Below are positions 8,342 through 15,582 of a stretch of DNA of 32,000 bases, piece by piece. This DNA is from Synechococcus elongatus PCC 6301 (lineage in GTDB: Bacteria; Cyanobacteriota; Cyanobacteriia; Synechococcales; Synechococcaceae), in assembly GCF_000010065.1 (NCBI RefSeq), contig NC_006576.1, positions 1,050,001 through 1,082,000 of the forward strand, written 5' to 3'. The notes below the pieces were generated by a model, which worked only from the letters and a program-made list of their open reading frames with translations, made no database searches and was not told the DNA's origin. A program made the position numbers and the translations under genes. Position 1 is the stretch's first letter, and every line of letters starts with the position of its first letter.

Positions 8342-10159
8342 ATGGCGAATCCCACATTTGGCAATCGCGACTCGGGCCGCAGTGTTGGCCGCTCCTATCA
8401 GTCGCTATGGCTGCTCTTGGGAATCACCACCGTCTTTTTTGGGGCTTTGGGTGGCCGCCTCGCCTACATGCAAATTCAGCAGGGCGAACGAAATCGCGAA
8501 CTGGCCAACGAGAATCGCATCCACCTGTTGCCTCGCCTCCCTGAACGTGGACGTATCCTCGACCGCGAAGGGCGTGTATTAGCGAGTAGCCGCCACGTTT
8601 ACTCACTCTATGTTTGGCCGCTGGCAATTAAAGACGACCGCTGGCCCGATACCCGACGCCGGCTAGCCGAGCTACTCAAAGTGCCGGAGTCTACGCTGCA
8701 AGCCCGCATCGATCGCCAGAAAGACAATGCCGCTTATCGAGTTCGCCTGGCCCAAAATCTGAGCCAACCCCAAGTTATTGCTTTTGAAGAAAATCGCCGT
8801 AACTTCATCGGCGTCGAAGTGGACTACGACAGCGTGCGCTACTACCCCAATGGGTCAATCGCAGCCCACGTTTTGGGGTACACCGGCGAGATTTCGGATG
8901 AGGAATTAAAACGGCGCGAGGAACAAGGATATCGACCTGGCGATGTCATTGGCCAAGCTGGACTCGAAGCCGCCTTTGAGAAGCAGTTGCGCGGTGAGTG
9001 GGGCGGTCAACAGGTAGAAGTGGATGCCCTCGGCAACGTCGTCCGCATTTTGGGCGACAAGCAAGCGCGAGCGGGCAAAGATGTCACCATCACACTGGAT
9101 CTCGATCTGCAAAAAGCAGCAGAGGCTGCGATCGGCAACAGCATGGGGGCGATCGTGGCGATCGATCCTCGGGACGGCAGCATCTTGGCGATGGTCAGCC
9201 GTCCCACCTACGATCCCAACGTCTTTGCCACCGAAATCAGCCAGGCCGAATGGGATCGACTGCAGCAGCTGGAATTCCCCTTCGTCAATCGCGCTCTGCA
9301 GTCCTTTCCGCCAGCCAGTACGTTCAAGATTGTGACCACAGCAGCGGCCTTGGAATCGGGCAAATATTCCCCCGACGCCGTGCTGCAAACCTTCCCCTTC
9401 CTGCGGGTTGGCGGCATTCAGTTTTGGGACTGGAATAATGCGGGCTTTGGTCCCCTCGGCTTTGTAGGCGCAATGCGCTATAGCAGCGACACCTTCTTCT
9501 ACCAAGTCGCTCAGCGGATTGGCGGCGACGCGATCGCAGCCATGTGCCGTCGGTTTGGCATGGGGCAGCGTACAGGGGTAGAGCTTGCCGCGGAGGAAGG
9601 GCGGGGTCTTGTGCCCGACAAAGCTTGGAAACTGAAGAACCTGAATGAGGAATGGACCGTCGGCGACTCGATCAATATGTCCATTGGTCAAGGCTTCTTA
9701 CTGCAAACGCCACTGCAAGTCGCGGTGATGTTTGCGATTCCAGCCAATAACGGCTTCCGGGTAAAACCGCACTTCCTCAAGGACGATCGCGACAGCAAAG
9801 AATGGCGCGAGGATCTGAAACTGAAGCCATCCACGATGAAAGTCATCCGGGACGGGCTAGTCTCAGTCGTCGCGGATGGAACTGGAGCTGCCCTGCGAGT
9901 GCCCTCACTGCCGCCCAACGCAGGCAAAACTGGAACAGCGGAGGATCCGCCCCGGCGATCGCACACTTGGTATGGCGGCTATGCACCGATTGAGAAACCT
10001 GAGATCGTCGTCGTTTCCTTCAACGAAAACTCAGGCGGCGGCGGTGGCAGTACAGCGGCTCCAAAAGTCCGTCAAGTGATGGAAGCCTACTTCCGCAAGA
10101 AGGCGCTTCGAGCTCAGGCCGCTAAGGGTAAGCAACCATCTGCCAACACCTCGCAGTAG
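8342..10159 (+). CDS. mrdA: penicillin-binding protein 2 (class B transpeptidase, elongation-type)
   Basis: N-terminal TM anchor, then IQQGERNRELANENRI...ERGRILDREGRVLA, typical of the PBP2 dimerisation domain. Motifs STFK (SxxK), SSD (SxD) and KTGTA (KTG) are present. The first ATG is at 8342; the track start 8264 is TTG. Confidence 0.85.
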   Translation: MANPTFGNRDSGRSVGRSYQSLWLLLGITTVFFGALGGRLAYMQIQQGERNRELANENRIHLLPRLPERGRILDREGRVLASSRHVYSLYVWPLAIKDDRWPDTRRRLAELLKVPESTLQARIDRQKDNAAYRVRLAQNLSQPQVIAFEENRRNFIGVEVDYDSVRYYPNGSIAAHVLGYTGEISDEELKRREEQGYRPGDVIGQAGLEAAFEKQLRGEWGGQQVEVDALGNVVRILGDKQARAGKDVTITLDLDLQKAAEAAIGNSMGAIVAIDPRDGSILAMVSRPTYDPNVFATEISQAEWDRLQQLEFPFVNRALQSFPPASTFKIVTTAAALESGKYSPDAVLQTFPFLRVGGIQFWDWNNAGFGPLGFVGAMRYSSDTFFYQVAQRIGGDAIAAMCRRFGMGQRTGVELAAEEGRGLVPDKAWKLKNLNEEWTVGDSINMSIGQGFLLQTPLQVAVMFAIPANNGFRVKPHFLKDDRDSKEWREDLKLKPSTMKVIRDGLVSVVADGTGAALRVPSLPPNAGKTGTAEDPPRRSHTWYGGYAPIEKPEIVVVSFNENSGGGGGSTAAPKVRQVMEAYFRKKALRAQAAKGKQPSANTSQ

Positions 10160-11247
10160 TAGTCCTGGAGTTGGCGCGTGGCTGCGTTCCAGCTCCAGCG
10201 TTCGGCTTCTTGACGAGCCGCTTGGCGTAGAATCTCGCGCTCTGCAGGGTTAGCCAACAAGCGCTGAATCGCAGCGATCGCCCCTTGTTCATCCTCAGGA
10301 TCGAACAGGAAACCATTAATGCCGTCGCTGACAATATCGGGAATGCCACCGGAATTGGCCGCCACGACCGGACAACCCGCTGCCATGGCTTCCAGCAAGA
10401 CTAGACCGAGGGTTTCGGTCCGGGAGGGAAAGACAAAAGCGTCAGCAGAAGCGTAGGCCGCCCCTAGCTGTTCCCCATGCAGATAGCCAATGAACTGCGT
10501 CTGGGTGCCAGCAAACAATTGCTCTAGTTCGGCCCGATGCGGGCCATCGCCGACCAAGGCCAAGCAAGCCTCAGGATTGGCATCCAAAATGGGTCGCAGG
10601 CGATCGATTTGCTTCTCGGCTGAGAGGCGTCCGACGTAGAGCAACAAGGGCGCAGTGGGCTTACCGCCACTGAGGCGATCGCGCATCGCAGCAGTAGCCA
10701 AGTCTGGCCGAAAGGTCTCGGTATCCACTCCTCGCTGCCAGAGGCAACAGTGCTCAATGCCGTGATCTGTCAGCTCCTGCACCATCGCGGTTGAAGTACA
10801 GAGGTTGATCGCTGCTTGGTTATGCGCCAGCTTCAGCAATTCCCAGAGCACCCCCTCCAAGACCCCCAGCCCGTAATGCTCAAGGTATTTCGGCAAATGG
10901 GTGTGATAGGACGCCACGAGTGGCACATTTAGCGCCTTGGCATAGTAGATGCCGCCCAACCCCAACACAGCCGGATTGACCACGTGGATCAGGTCGGGCC
11001 GGAACCGCTCCAAGGCTTTTCCCACTTTCGGCAACGGAAAAGCTAGCTTCAGCTCGGGATAGAGCGGTAGCGGAAAGCCTTTAACCCCATAGACTCGAGC
11101 CCCCTTGTGCTCGCGGAGCCCGCCGTCGGGGCAAAAAACCATGACGGTGTGGCCAAGACGCTGCAGGTGATCGACCGTGTGCCGAAGCCGCGTGACGATG
11201 CCATCCACTTTGGGGAGGAACGTCTCGGTAAAGAGAGCGATGCGCAT
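10114..11247 (-). CDS. sqdX: sulfoquinovosyl diacylglycerol synthase (GT4 glycosyltransferase)
   Basis: GT4 fold with FVFPSRTETLGLVLLEAMAAGCPVV. It lies 15 bp downstream of sqdB on the same strand, the arrangement described for Synechococcus PCC 7942. Confidence 0.9.
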   Translation of the reverse strand: MRIALFTETFLPKVDGIVTRLRHTVDHLQRLGHTVMVFCPDGGLREHKGARVYGVKGFPLPLYPELKLAFPLPKVGKALERFRPDLIHVVNPAVLGLGGIYYAKALNVPLVASYHTHLPKYLEHYGLGVLEGVLWELLKLAHNQAAINLCTSTAMVQELTDHGIEHCCLWQRGVDTETFRPDLATAAMRDRLSGGKPTAPLLLYVGRLSAEKQIDRLRPILDANPEACLALVGDGPHRAELEQLFAGTQTQFIGYLHGEQLGAAYASADAFVFPSRTETLGLVLLEAMAAGCPVVAANSGGIPDIVSDGINGFLFDPEDEQGAIAAIQRLLANPAEREILRQAARQEAERWSWNAATRQLQDYYCEVLADGCLPLAA

Positions 11248-11262
11248 AGAGAGAGTGCGACT

Positions 11263-12471
11263 TTAGCGCAGAGCGGTTTCAGGAGCGCTGAGAGCTTCAG
11301 CTTGATTACGGGTCCAGGCAGAAACGCAGGGAATTTTGGCGCGATCGCAGCGATCGGCAAACTTCTGCGCAATTTCTACCACTTCGCTCATCAGGCCATT
11401 GTCCAAGGTGGTCGGATTGAGGCCTAAATCAATCAAGCAGCGGTTGTCGACAATCAAGTCGTTCTCAAGGGCTTCCTTGCGTGGATTGGGCAGGTAGGCG
11501 ATTTCAGCACCGGTCAATGCCGCCACTTTCTCTGCCAAATCCTTGACTTGGTAGGTTTCCGTCATCTGGTTAAAGATGCGGACTTTTTCATTGGCTGCTG
11601 GCGGATTTTCGATCGCCAGTTGGACGCAGCGCACTGAGTCGCGAATGTGGATGAAGGCTCGGGTTTGGCCACCAACGCCATGCACAGTCAAGGGATAGCC
11701 GATCGCCGCCTGCATCAAGAAGCGGTTCAAGACTGTGCCGTAATCACCGTCGTAGTCGAACCGATTGGTCAGATCCGGGTGGAGATTACAGTGATCGGTG
11801 TTCGTGCCCCAGACAATACCCTGGTGAAGGTCGGTGACTTGGATGTTGTCGTTCTTGTTGTAGTAGTAGAACAACAATTGATCCAGCGTCTTGGTCATGT
11901 GATAGACGCTACCCGGATCAACGGGGTGAAGAATCTTCTCTTCAAAGCGTTGGCCATCCCGCTGGACGACTTCCACTTCTAAGTAGCCTTCAGGAATCGT
12001 AGCCCCGCGATGGCTACCGTATCCATAGACGCCCATGGTGCCCAAGTGGACAATGTGGGACTTGAGGCCGACATCCACACAGGCGCAGAGCAGATTGTGG
12101 GTGGCGTTGACGTTGTTATTGACCGTGAAGCGCTTATGCCATGCACTCTTCATTGAATAGGGGGCGGCGCGCTGTTCGGCAAAATGCACGATCGCATCCG
12201 GCTGCGTTTCTAGCAGTAGTGCACAGAGGCGATCGTAATCAGCCGCTAAGTCGAGATTGACAAAGCTAATCGGCTGCCCGCCCGTTTCTTGCCATGCCTT
12301 CAACCGGCGTTCAATCGTCGCGATCGGAGTGAGGGACTGAACCCCCAATTCCACGTCTGTCTTGCGGCGAACGAGGTTGTCAACAATGGTGACGGCGTGA
12401 CCTGCAGCAGCCAAATTGAGAGCGCAGGGCCACCCGCAGAAACCATCGCCACCCAATACAAGAATCTTCAC
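11263..12471 (-). CDS. sqdB: UDP-sulfoquinovose synthase
   Basis: Rossmann motif KILVLGGDGFCGW and catalytic YHMTK. The ~400-aa SDR-type length and overall similarity match SQD1/SqdB. It is followed by sqdX. Confidence 0.95.
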   Translation of the reverse strand: MKILVLGGDGFCGWPCALNLAAAGHAVTIVDNLVRRKTDVELGVQSLTPIATIERRLKAWQETGGQPISFVNLDLAADYDRLCALLLETQPDAIVHFAEQRAAPYSMKSAWHKRFTVNNNVNATHNLLCACVDVGLKSHIVHLGTMGVYGYGSHRGATIPEGYLEVEVVQRDGQRFEEKILHPVDPGSVYHMTKTLDQLLFYYYNKNDNIQVTDLHQGIVWGTNTDHCNLHPDLTNRFDYDGDYGTVLNRFLMQAAIGYPLTVHGVGGQTRAFIHIRDSVRCVQLAIENPPAANEKVRIFNQMTETYQVKDLAEKVAALTGAEIAYLPNPRKEALENDLIVDNRCLIDLGLNPTTLDNGLMSEVVEIAQKFADRCDRAKIPCVSAWTRNQAEALSAPETALR

Positions 12472-12564
12472 GCAGTTCCGCTCCTGAGATCGCGTTTGAC
12501 CGGGGCAATCAGGCTCACGGCCAAATTACCACAGAGCGATCCCCGGGAGCGGTTGTCCATGACA

Positions 12565-12735
12565 CTAGTGAGAAGCAGACACGGCAATCACTAACATCCC
12601 TGCAATCAGCACCAGGGCAGCCCCGCCCGTCCAGAGCCATTTTTTGCCCTGATCAGCGTTGGCTTCTGCTTGGTACATTCTGGGTTCTTTGGCGAAGTTA
12701 TTAAGCCGTCCGCCTTCTTCGGTGGTGTAGGGCAT
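12565..12735 (-). CDS. unlisted 56-aa single-TM protein with Hlip/Psb34-like N-terminal arm
   Basis: My own translation in a frame different from track ORF 12606..12797 gives MPYTTEEGGRLNNFAKEPRMYQAEANADQGKKWLWTGGAALVLIAGMLVIAVSASH*. One clear TM helix is present, along with the RLNNFA-x-EP-x-x-Y motif known from HliA/B N-termini and Psb34. It is below the 60-aa cutoff of the track. Confidence 0.5.
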   Translation of the reverse strand: MPYTTEEGGRLNNFAKEPRMYQAEANADQGKKWLWTGGAALVLIAGMLVIAVSASH

Positions 12736-12818
12736 GGGAATGGATGAGACCTCAATACAGCTCTGTCGTGCCCCAGAGTAGCAAAGGATGCTGTCATCGC
12801 CCTGAGTCGCTGCAGCTT

Positions 12819-13679
12819 CTAAACAGTGGCTGGTGACTGCCCGACCAAGCCTGTTTGCGGAGAGCTAGCGATCGCCGCCGATCGCGTGGGAATCCGACCC
12901 GCTTGAAAGGCCAATCGACCCGCGATCGTGGCCATGGCCATCGCTTGGGCCATCCGCGCCGGATCTTCGGCTTGAGCGATCGCGGTATTGATCAGCAGGG
13001 CATCGGCTCCTAGTTCCATCGCCTGTGCAGCTTCACTGGCGGTACCGATGCCGGCATCAACAACAACGGGAACCTTCGCGTTCTCAACGATGATGCGAAT
13101 GTTGGCTTCGTTGCGAATGCCTTGCCCCGAACCGATCGGCGAGCCCAGGGGCATCACCGTTGCGCAGCCCACTTCTTCTAAGCGCTTGGCAAGCAGTGGA
13201 TCGGCATTGATGTAGGGCAAGACTGCGAAGCCCTCTTTGACTAACTGCTCCGCCGCCTGCAACGTCCCGATCGGATCGGGCAGCAGATAGCGACTGTCGG
13301 GGATGACTTCCAGCTTGACGAAGTTGTTGTCTTCCTGACCCAGCAATTTCGCCATTTCCCGCCCGAGGCGGGCGACCCGAATTGCTTCCTCTGCCGTGGC
13401 ACAGCCGGCAGTGTTCGGTAGCATCCAGATCTTTTGCCAGTCCAGAGCCTCGGCCAAGCCTTCATGGCCGGGAGCATTGGTCTGCACTCGCCGCACTGCA
13501 ACAGTCACAATCTCGCAGCCACTGGCGGCAATGCTGGCGCGCATTTGCTCAAAGCTGCGGTATTTGCCCGTCCCCGTCATCAGGCGCGATCGAAACGACC
13601 GTCCGGCGATCGTCAAAACATCGGCAGTGGTGTCGGGGGTGGCGACCATGAACTCGGCATCAGCACAACTGTTTTCCAT
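12819..13679 (-). CDS. thiG: thiazole synthase
   Basis: Motifs [33 protein letters not shown] and VVVDAGIGT are present. The start is uncertain: ATG 13679 was chosen, ATG 13649 is possible, and the track's TTG 13724 is unlikely. Confidence 0.9.
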
Positions 13680-13738
13680 TATTCCGACTTGCCTGAGCCG
13701 AATCGAGATTGTGGATGTTGACAAAATTGCGACAAAGA

Positions 13739-13756
13739 GTTACAAAAGTTTACAGA
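13739..13756. promoter_or_regulatory. HLR1-type direct repeat (candidate RpaB-class response-regulator site)
   Basis: GTTACAAA-AG-TTTACAGA matches the consensus (G/T)TTACA(T/A)(T/A)-N2-(G/T)TTACA(T/A)(T/A) at 15 of 16 positions. It lies in the divergent intergenic region between thiG and a + strand gene. Confidence 0.5.
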
Positions 13757-13789
13757 GAAAGACAGTGACGACCTGCTAACGCTTACTCA

Positions 13790-13880
13790 GCGTTTCAGAA
13801 CAAGCATTTCGAGAACTGACCCTTCTCCTCCTCGACTCAGCTCTGTATCGACTGCCTCGGTTCTGCCGGGGCTTTTTTTT
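13790..13880 (+). ncRNA. candidate small RNA or terminated leader (5' end not determinable from sequence)
   Basis: Imperfect stem AGAACTGA (13812-13819) / TCAGCTCT (13837-13844) presents the 17-nt loop CCCTTCTCCTCCTCGAC, which is anti-Shine-Dalgarno-like. A GC hairpin plus T8 follows. No + strand CDS lies upstream. Confidence 0.3.
13854..13880 (+). terminator. orphan intrinsic terminator
   Basis: GCCTCGG-TTCTG-CCGGGGC forms a 7-bp GC-rich stem with one G.U pair, followed by TTTTTTTT. On the minus strand no U-tract follows the hairpin, so it is + strand specific. Confidence 0.6.
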
Positions 13881-13901
13881 GACCTCGACTGGCCTGCCAT
13901 A

Positions 13902-14465
13902 ATGGCGATGGTCGTTCGTCGAGATGTTATGCGATCGCTCTTTTTGTCTGCACTGCTAGCCGCCACGACGGTGGCCACCGGAGCACTACCGGCGACGGCT
14001 CAAAGCATTTTTAACCGTGATGCCTTTTTTAATCGCGTTACGCCTGAGCTAGCACCTTGGGCTTCTCCTCAGGTCTTGCTGGAGCGTCTGCCGCGCCAGT
14101 GGAAGGGCAACTTTAACTACGAAGGGAGTACCCAAGCCCAGAACTATCCGACTGGCCTACAAGTGACTGGCTATTCGATCTCCGGCCGGGTGCTGTCCTT
14201 CTCCGGTCTGCTCAACTGGGGCAGCGATCGCCAGTCTGATGTGTTTGGCTACATCGACAGCCAAACGGGCCAAATTGAGTTTTACGAACGGCAAAATCTC
14301 GGTCCCACGGCTGCAAGTTCCTCCGGTGGCGGCTTTATCGGCTTCTTAGCTCTGCCCGATGAGCAACGCATTCCCGGTGAAGCCCTGTTCTACTGGGTTC
14401 CCAACAGCATCATTCAGCCCACTGGGGTCCTAGCGATCAAACCCGCACCTGCGACGAATCGCTAA
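13902..14465 (+). CDS. secreted hypothetical protein (signal peptide)
   Basis: N-terminus MAMVVRRDVMRSLFLSALLAATTVATGALPATAQS looks like a Sec signal with an A-x-A-type cleavage site. I recognise no domain. Confidence 0.7.
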   Translation: MAMVVRRDVMRSLFLSALLAATTVATGALPATAQSIFNRDAFFNRVTPELAPWASPQVLLERLPRQWKGNFNYEGSTQAQNYPTGLQVTGYSISGRVLSFSGLLNWGSDRQSDVFGYIDSQTGQIEFYERQNLGPTAASSSGGGFIGFLALPDEQRIPGEALFYWVPNSIIQPTGVLAIKPAPATNR

Positions 14466-15267
14466 GCCGCTGCTCGGTGATGAGAGTCACACTCGTCCAC
14501 GCACCACTGGCATCGAAACTGCGGATCAGGCGCAGTCGGCGATCGCGACTGACGAGCCAGCCTAGTTCAAGCTGAAAAGGCGATCGAAGGGCCAGTTCTG
14601 TCGGGCAAGCACAGCTCACGCCACCGGGTAATAGCCAGATCGTGACTGCCTGTTGTTTGCCGACAAAGACCAGTTGCGATCCTTGAATTGGCGCAAGGGA
14701 TTCGATCGTGCGATCGCCCCAGTCGAGCTGGGACTGCAACTGATTCCCCACTTTCTCCAAACGGAGTTGGGTGGTGACGCGATCGGGCGATCGCCAGTCG
14801 GGATACCGAGTTTCGGCGATTCCGCTCCAGGTTCCCAGCAAGTCTTGAACGGTCAACGGAGCTTGTTGGAACGCATCAATGCCAGGTAGTGCCTCCCGAA
14901 TCAGGGTTAGCCCCTGTAGCTGGCGATCGCGGTACTGCCAGACCAAGCGGCGGCGCTGTTGATCGGCGAGCAAGCCCTGCTCTGCGCCAAACTCCCCAAA
15001 CGGGGCAAGCTGCATGCCACCTTGGGAAAAAGCCCCGTCGTCAAAGCCAAGGTAAGCGCGACTGACACTCGTGAAGGGAATCTCAACCCGGCGATCGGGT
15101 TGCTGCTGATAGTCAACAACGATTTTGGCCTGTTGGCGATCAGCACTAGCGCTGAGAGTCACGACCGTCGGCTGCTCAGACAGGATTTCGCCCTGCAGGT
15201 TCAGGCTGGTAAAGCTGCCTCGCCACTCACCTACATTTTCCAGCAAGCAATTCCAGACCGATTTCAT
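14437..15267 (-). CDS. DUF3598-family protein (two tandem beta-barrel-like halves)
   Basis: N-terminus MKSVWNCLLENVGEWRGSF matches my memory of the cyanobacterial DUF3598 N-terminus. The first ATG is at 15267; the track start 15285 is TTG. Confidence 0.75.
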   Translation of the reverse strand: MKSVWNCLLENVGEWRGSFTSLNLQGEILSEQPTVVTLSASADRQQAKIVVDYQQQPDRRVEIPFTSVSRAYLGFDDGAFSQGGMQLAPFGEFGAEQGLLADQQRRRLVWQYRDRQLQGLTLIREALPGIDAFQQAPLTVQDLLGTWSGIAETRYPDWRSPDRVTTQLRLEKVGNQLQSQLDWGDRTIESLAPIQGSQLVFVGKQQAVTIWLLPGGVSCACPTELALRSPFQLELGWLVSRDRRLRLIRSFDASGAWTSVTLITEQRLSDSSQVRV

Positions 15268-15345
15268 ATTTGCATCGCCTTGCAAGGTGAGTTACGCCGA
15301 AGCAATCGGGCTTTATAGGGGTACAGTCACCGACTAACAACCACT

Positions 15346-15582
15346 ATGAAACGAGAAGGGGTTCCCTCATTGACCGCCGATCAAGAAGCAGAGCTTCAAC
15401 ACATTCTCCAAGAGATTGATCGGGACTTTCTCAGTGACGGCAGAATCAACTTGCAAAAGGCACGGGCAATCGTGCAGCTTTCGCAGCAACTAGCACCCGT
15501 ACAAGCTGAAGTGCTCTACCGGATCCGCCAAGCCATTCGCGAGCGCTGGGGGGATCGCCTAGACGTGGAATTCGAGGATTAA
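15346..15582 (+). CDS. hypothetical protein (78 aa, acidic, helical)
   Basis: ATG-initiated ORF in an otherwise empty gap. No recognisable motif. Confidence 0.5.
   Translation: MKREGVPSLTADQEAELQHILQEIDRDFLSDGRINLQKARAIVQLSQQLAPVQAEVLYRIRQAIRERWGDRLDVEFED

Follow-up and report, generated by a model that had tools for sequence, protein, structure and literature searches.

A spacer between thiG and a sqdB-like gene of Synechococcus elongatus PCC 6301 raises the question of whether a very short open reading frame (ORF) within it is a gene and, if so, which kind of small membrane protein it specifies. The locus lies in a 32,000-nt stretch of DNA (the window), whose positions are used below. An initial annotation, made from the letters and a list of ORFs, had pointed to a 56-aa frame with one strong transmembrane helix and an N-terminal arm of the sort found in HliA/HliB-type high-light-inducible proteins (Hlips) and in the photosystem II (PSII) assembly factor Psb34, and had favored the latter. 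We find that the ORF is almost certainly psb34, the single-copy S. elongatus ortholog of Synechocystis ssl1498 and Thermosynechococcus tsl0063, with a role deduced from these homologs. The gene is not new: it belongs to a characterized family and has been described and annotated before.

The 56-codon frame and its family

On the minus strand, the frame comprises 56 codons between an ATG at 12735 and a TAG at 12565-12567, as determined from the ORF listing and its translation. The initial annotation had translated its frame by hand and had given no strand; that 56-aa translation is identical, letter for letter, to the minus-strand frame of 12565..12735, and the plus-strand reading of the same interval has a stop inside. 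With 35 ORFs of 30 aa or more overlapping the surrounding 3.5 kb, a 56-aa ORF could by itself have arisen by chance. Its significance comes from an HMM match (E = 1.2e-20) and from the substitution pattern, rather than from its length.

The substitution pattern was obtained from a same-genus genome (G053) with 84% identity across the region. In the psb34 frame, dN/dS was 0.108 (dS 0.76; Nei-Gojobori) and the 29 differences were split 5/4/20 over codon positions 1/2/3, while the two shifted frames gave dN/dS values of 1.4 and 1.6. By this measure, which comes from one same-genus genome and is otherwise accompanied by protein-level conservation in ~110 distant loci, the psb34 frame is under purifying selection. 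Full-length homologs that run from start to stop with the same motif were present in another 29 genomes from the phylum scan and in 80 named genome records. A comparison of frame conservation, one of the checks that the initial annotation had proposed, therefore favors the 56-aa frame.

The 63-aa ORF offered by the ORF track in this gap lies on the same strand in a different frame. The initial annotation had seen no membrane or motif character in it, and it is spurious: it matches no Pfam or NCBIfam family, and in G053 it is interrupted at codon 32 by an in-frame stop.

Table 1. Features at the psb34 locus, in window positions
Feature	Position	Strand	Evidence or remark
thiG, thiazole synthase	12819..13724	-	PF05690, 369.4 bits; upstream of psb34, 83-nt gap
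Conserved 62-nt block, probable promoter or 5' leader (putative)	12736..12797	-	~95% identity to G053
63-aa ORF, spurious	12606..12797	-	Other frame; no Pfam/NCBIfam match; stop in G053
psb34 CDS	12565..12735	-	ORF and translation; NF033486, 73.1 bits; PDB Tsl0063, E = 1.1e-11; dN/dS 0.108 vs. G053
N-terminal cytoplasmic arm, residues 1-26	12658..12735	-	Invariant columns; 15/27 identical to own-genome Hlip arm
Single transmembrane helix, ~residues 33-55	12571..12639	-	Kyte-Doolittle, AlphaFold2
Imperfect ~75-nt predicted hairpin, psb34-sqdB spacer	12478..12552	-	Fold z = -1.7; opposite strand z = -2.7
sqdB-like UDP-sulfoquinovose synthase	11263..12471	-	NF041015, 330 bits (below the 575-bit equivalog cutoff), and PF01370; downstream of psb34, 93-nt gap

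The 56-aa protein matched NF033486, the NCBIfam equivalog 'harvest_ssl1498' (product 'photosystem II assembly protein Psb34'), with 73.1 bits (curated cutoff, 45 bits; E = 1.2e-20), from residues 4-55 over model positions 1-53 of 53. When the whole 2.70-Mb genome was scanned, the psb34 locus scored 71.7 bits and was the only copy above the cutoff, which identifies it as the ortholog. Among all PDB chains, phmmer returned Tsl0063 as the sole match (7DXA, 7DXH, 7NHP, 7NHQ; E = 1.1e-11, residues 1-54). A profile of 25 family sequences, the first row of which is the protein from 12565..12735, found the same Tsl0063 chain (E = 1.1e-20) and no other. These scores substantiate the Psb34-type identity that had been suggested initially, and a search against the Ssl1498/Tsl0063 and Hlip families, also proposed at the outset, was significant for the Psb34 model and blank for the Hlip family PF00504. 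Pfam as a whole gave no family for the ORF at E <= 10, because Pfam holds no Psb34 model. When the AlphaFold2 model was compared with the PDB by Foldseek, nothing was returned at E <= 10 either, which is expected for one helix with a disordered arm and is uninformative on homology.

All eight invariant columns of the 25-sequence alignment (M1, G9, L11, N12, N13, P18, Y21, and A51) are retained in the S. elongatus protein, as are the nearly invariant T4, A15, E17, A23, and E24. Its arm reads G-R-LNNFA-K-EP-x-x-Y, for which the family form is MPYT-x-E-x-G-x-LNNFA-x-EP-x-x-Y-x-AE. The RLNNFA-x-EP-x-x-Y motif of the initial annotation is thus found in the protein, and G9, L11, N12, N13, P18, and Y21 within or beside it are invariant across the 25 homologs. 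The protein departs from the family consensus only in the linker that follows (AE-A...GKKWL vs. AEPP...QKRNY): this linker is one residue shorter, and has lost both the Pro-Pro and a nearly invariant Arg (KKW vs. KRNY). This divergence accounts for an NF033486 score of ~73 bits, compared with ~95 bits in most cyanobacteria. Family membership does not hinge on the linker, because the structurally solved Tsl0063 departs from consensus there too (AQPW...QKVRA).

Hydropathy and structure prediction agree with the single strong transmembrane helix claimed earlier. The 19-residue Kyte-Doolittle mean was negative through residue 24, rose to 2.0-2.27 in windows starting at residues 33-38, and reached its maximum of 2.27 at residues 34-52. 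AlphaFold2, run on the alignment, predicted one helix at residues 27-55 (pLDDT > 90) preceded by an arm with a pLDDT of ~51-67. In this model, the low confidence of the arm in isolation is consistent with an arm that becomes ordered only on the PSII surface.

Gene order and the psb34-sqdB spacer

The gene lies in a string of four on the minus strand, thiG, psb34, the sqdB-like gene, and, 15 nt after the latter, a GT4 glycosyltransferase gene in the position of sqdX. In other cyanobacteria, a same-strand thiG immediately preceded psb34 at 15/29 distant loci and at 44/80 further, named ones; a median of 171 nt separated the two genes in the named set. The pair was seen in Nostocales, Microcoleus, Moorena, Limnospira, Lyngbya, and Elainellaceae; it is conserved widely, and nothing obvious connects the functions of the two genes. 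The occurrence of sqdB downstream of psb34 was limited to the S. elongatus genus, a pattern more readily explained by a local rearrangement than by a functional connection. The longest ORF for thiG in the window (301 aa) begins with TTG, and its ThiG domain starts only at residue 38; with two in-frame ATGs in between (13614-13724), the true thiG start is probably further downstream.

On its 5' side, psb34 is preceded by a 62-nt block that is ~95% identical in G053, against a background of ~80-85%, and that may hold a promoter or form a 5' leader. No sigma-70-like site was found in this block by scanning, and its fold was no more stable than those of shuffled sequences (z = +0.85). A promoter and terminator scan of 12300-13000 on both strands returned zero sites, with neither a promoter-like site nor a clear Shine-Dalgarno sequence at the psb34 start. 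In G053, a 22-nt insertion directly follows the thiG stop.

On its 3' side, the segment at ~12405-12565, which takes in the spacer between psb34 and sqdB together with ~65 nt at the start of sqdB, was 97.5-100% identical to G053 in 40-nt windows, again over a background of ~80-85%; this conservation rests on two near-identical sequences. The spacer is predicted to fold into an imperfect hairpin (Table 1), the 3' arm of which spans an AGGAG located 9 nt 5' of the sqdB GTG start. The terminator scan of 12300-13000 found no U-tract terminator in the spacer, and Rfam assigned no family to 12300-13000 at E <= 1 or to 10000-15500 at the gathering threshold. Because thiG precedes psb34 in about half of the distant cyanobacteria, sqdB and sqdX follow it with no terminator found from thiG to sqdB, and the nearly identical spacer holds a predicted hairpin that would mask the sqdB ribosome-binding site, psb34 could be part of a transcriptional unit in which a structured leader couples a PSII assembly factor to the synthesis of PSII-bound sulfolipid. 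We regard this reading as speculative and rather unlikely.

Further upstream, several features of the window were noted in passing. An HLR1-like direct repeat, GTTACAAA-AG-TTTACA in the plus-strand reading (~13744-13761), precedes a plus-strand hairpin with a T-run (~13850-13880). Rfam reported a weak plus-strand match to PsrR1 at 13823-13877 (14.4 bits vs. a gathering score of 42; E = 3.8). If real, this PsrR1 would be divergent from thiG and not the leading gene of the thiG-psb34-sqdB string. On the plus strand at 13902-14465 comes an unannotated ORF of 187 aa, with no family match and an N-terminus resembling a signal peptide; the 3' end of this ORF overlaps that of a minus-strand gene (14437-15285) for a 282-aa protein with DUF3598_N and BFA1_C domains. 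BFA1 is a biogenesis factor required for ATP synthase 1.

Psb34 weighed against other readings

Three other readings of the locus were weighed. If the frame were open by chance in a non-coding spacer, with the 63-aa ORF real in its place or with no gene at all, one would expect just such a plenitude of short ORFs (35 with 30 aa or more within 3.5 kb) and would not be surprised that a promoter-like site and a Shine-Dalgarno sequence went undetected. The reading is countered by an HMM match of E = 1.2e-20, a dN/dS of 0.11 in frame against values above 1 in shifted frames, a stop in the 63-aa frame of the relative, and full-length homologs throughout the cyanobacteria. The HMM match and the substitution pattern together refute a chance ORF, and we put its probability close to nil. 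It is also conceivable on the face of it that the protein is a true Hlip (Hlip/Scp), with bound chlorophyll and carotenoid and an excitation-quenching function. Exactly two proteins of the genome match the Psb34 model, and the second is a 72-aa protein that stays below the cutoff (~30-32 bits). With an A-E-K-L-N-G-R chlorophyll-binding motif and a borderline PF00504 match (21.3 bits), this 72-aa protein is a true Hlip, which we take to be the original hliA of Synechococcus PCC 7942. It is encoded on the plus strand at L002 1486..1701 (G000:C1:2250660-2250875), and five other weak PF00504-like sites are found elsewhere in the genome. No other protein of the genome has a Psb34-like arm, and Psb34 aligns with it over this arm only (residues 4-30, 15/27 identities, E = 3e-8). 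HliA/B-type Hlips in general resemble the 56-aa protein in their N-terminal arm (G-R-x-NNFA-x-EP), single helix, and small size, but their helix contains E-x-x-N-G-R and they match PF00504, neither of which is true of the 56-aa protein. The motif is absent from its whole sequence. Thus, the arm and the Hlip's own 30-32 bits on the Psb34 model speak for a Hlip, whereas the helix without E-x-x-N-G-R, the blank PF00504 result at E <= 10 (21.3 bits for the real Hlip), and the clear separation of the pair by the Psb34 model (73.1 vs. 31.6 bits, cutoff 45) refute that identity at the level of sequence and leave it a negligible chance. The initial annotation had argued both that the arm is common to HliA/B-type proteins and that the lack of E-x-x-N-G-R favors the Psb34 type, and both arguments stand. 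The N-terminus of Synechocystis Psb34 is likewise common to HliA/B, and that protein likewise lacks the Cab motif (PMC9458560).

The remaining reading accepts the Psb34 family but supposes that the diverged linker gives this member a binding mode or role unlike that of Ssl1498/Tsl0063, perhaps tied to the adjacent sulfolipid genes. A linker that lacks the Pro-Pro and the nearly invariant Arg is compatible with this, as are the same-strand order thiG-psb34-sqdB-sqdX with gaps of 83, 93, and 15 nt, in which no terminator was found from thiG to sqdB, and a psb34-sqdB spacer nearly identical in the same-genus relative. Against it, the gene is the sole copy in the genome and hence the ortholog, its arm retains every residue that is invariant in the family, the linker of the solved Tsl0063 is also off consensus, and adjacency to sqdB does not extend beyond one genus. 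We therefore consider a diverged role very improbable and retain the assignment to psb34 as the ortholog of ssl1498 and tsl0063.

Proposed role and distribution of Psb34

What Psb34 does is known from two other cyanobacteria. In Thermosynechococcus, the Psb34 helix binds CP47 beside PsbH and the arm, ordered along the cytoplasmic surface of PSII, covers D2 at its side and top; RC47-Psb28 and a later intermediate, PSII-I, with CP43 and Psb27, are recovered in pull-downs with tagged Psb34 (bioRxiv 10.1101/2020.09.14.294884). In Synechocystis, Psb34 binding requires PsbH, and the FLAG-Psb34 eluate contains RC47, monomeric and dimeric PSII, Psb27, Psb28, PsbO, and PsbV, but never HliA/B (PMC9458560). 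Deletion of psb34 in that organism leads to more HliA/B on RC47 and PSII with no apparent growth phenotype, and the authors proposed that Psb34 displaces Hlips from late intermediates, allowing the Hlips to be recycled to new CP47 modules (PMC9458560).

The S. elongatus protein is close to both. Like Tsl0063, it is 56 aa long, has a near-identical arm (residues 1-24) and one helix at the C-terminus, and lacks a chlorophyll-binding motif; the structures and pull-down come from the Thermosynechococcus protein, and the linker and helix sequences of the two differ, with one gap after residue 31. With Ssl1498 of Synechocystis sp. PCC 6803, it shares an equivalog match over the whole model (via NF033486), the HliA/B arm, and a genome that encodes PsbH and Psb28 (psbH and two copies of psb28 in S. 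elongatus), whereas competition with HliA/B and PsbH-dependent binding have been shown only in Synechocystis. S. elongatus also differs from Synechocystis sp. PCC 6803 in having just one Hlip with a matching arm. Our literature search found no transcript or protein evidence for S. elongatus Psb34, and the one S. elongatus paper that names Psb34 does so in a structural overlay only.

From the structures of the homologs, the helix of S. elongatus Psb34 would dock on CP47 next to PsbH, with the arm along the cytoplasmic face of PSII, and the protein would be present in RC47 and in assembly intermediates that contain Psb27 and Psb28. Since it has the same arm as HliA/B-type Hlips and no chlorophyll-binding motif, Psb34 would compete with these Hlips for one site; in S. 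elongatus, the likely competitor at the CP47/PsbH site would be the 72-aa Hlip. Such competition would release Hlips, which could then be recycled to new CP47 modules, and late intermediates would stay free of Hlips until Psb34 leaves on conversion to active PSII. By analogy with the two characterized systems, this assembly and competition role is the most likely one in S. elongatus. Its physiological weight may be modest, given that Synechocystis grows without apparent impairment when psb34 is deleted.

Across the phylum, NF033486 scored above its cutoff in 112/301 sampled genomes. Matches occurred in every family of the class to which the window belongs, with four small genomes of one genus lacking them, and there was no match in the remaining families of the phylum in this 301-genome sample. 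Psb34 has also been reported missing from Gloeobacterales (preprint PMC13174344).

Copy number varies elsewhere. Many cyanobacteria carry several copies above the cutoff, and many large genomes have 3-10 matches. One genome holds five near-identical 56-aa Psb34-family genes in tandem (L120 284-1361; G020:C1:5112200-5113800), spaced 226-227 nt from start to start and each above the NF033486 cutoff. These copies form a second subtype that begins M-Y-T-T-S-N-E-E-G-I-L-N-N-Y (M-Y-T-T-x-N-E-x-G-I-L-N-N-Y-A-T-E-P), which was also found at L004, L017, and L018. A full-length Psb34, 60% identical to the S. elongatus protein, was found on a metagenome-assembled contig labeled 'Candidatus Sericytochromatia bacterium' (DATNQT010000477.1; L043 2501-2671). 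As Sericytochromatia are non-photosynthetic, this contig is probably mis-binned cyanobacterial DNA.

The exact 56-aa sequence is already in public databases (NCBI, UniRef, and nr), where 400 contigs carry it. For the other named members of its 90%-identity cluster, from S. elongatus PCC 11801, PCC 11802, and IITB7, RefSeq gives either 'photosystem II assembly protein Psb34' or the name 'ssl1498 family light-harvesting-like protein'. The frame was indeed unlisted in the ORF track of the initial annotation, but it is not unlisted in public databases, and the suggestion that annotation had missed the gene fails because the cluster mates in other S. elongatus strains already carry the Psb34 name. 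Psb34 itself was named in 2020-2021, is found in four PDB entries, and has an NCBIfam equivalog model of its own. The locus thus illustrates how an ORF list with a 60-aa floor conceals a genuine photosynthesis gene, and the thiG-psb34 pair and the structured spacer offer small leads on how psb34 and the sulfolipid genes may be expressed.
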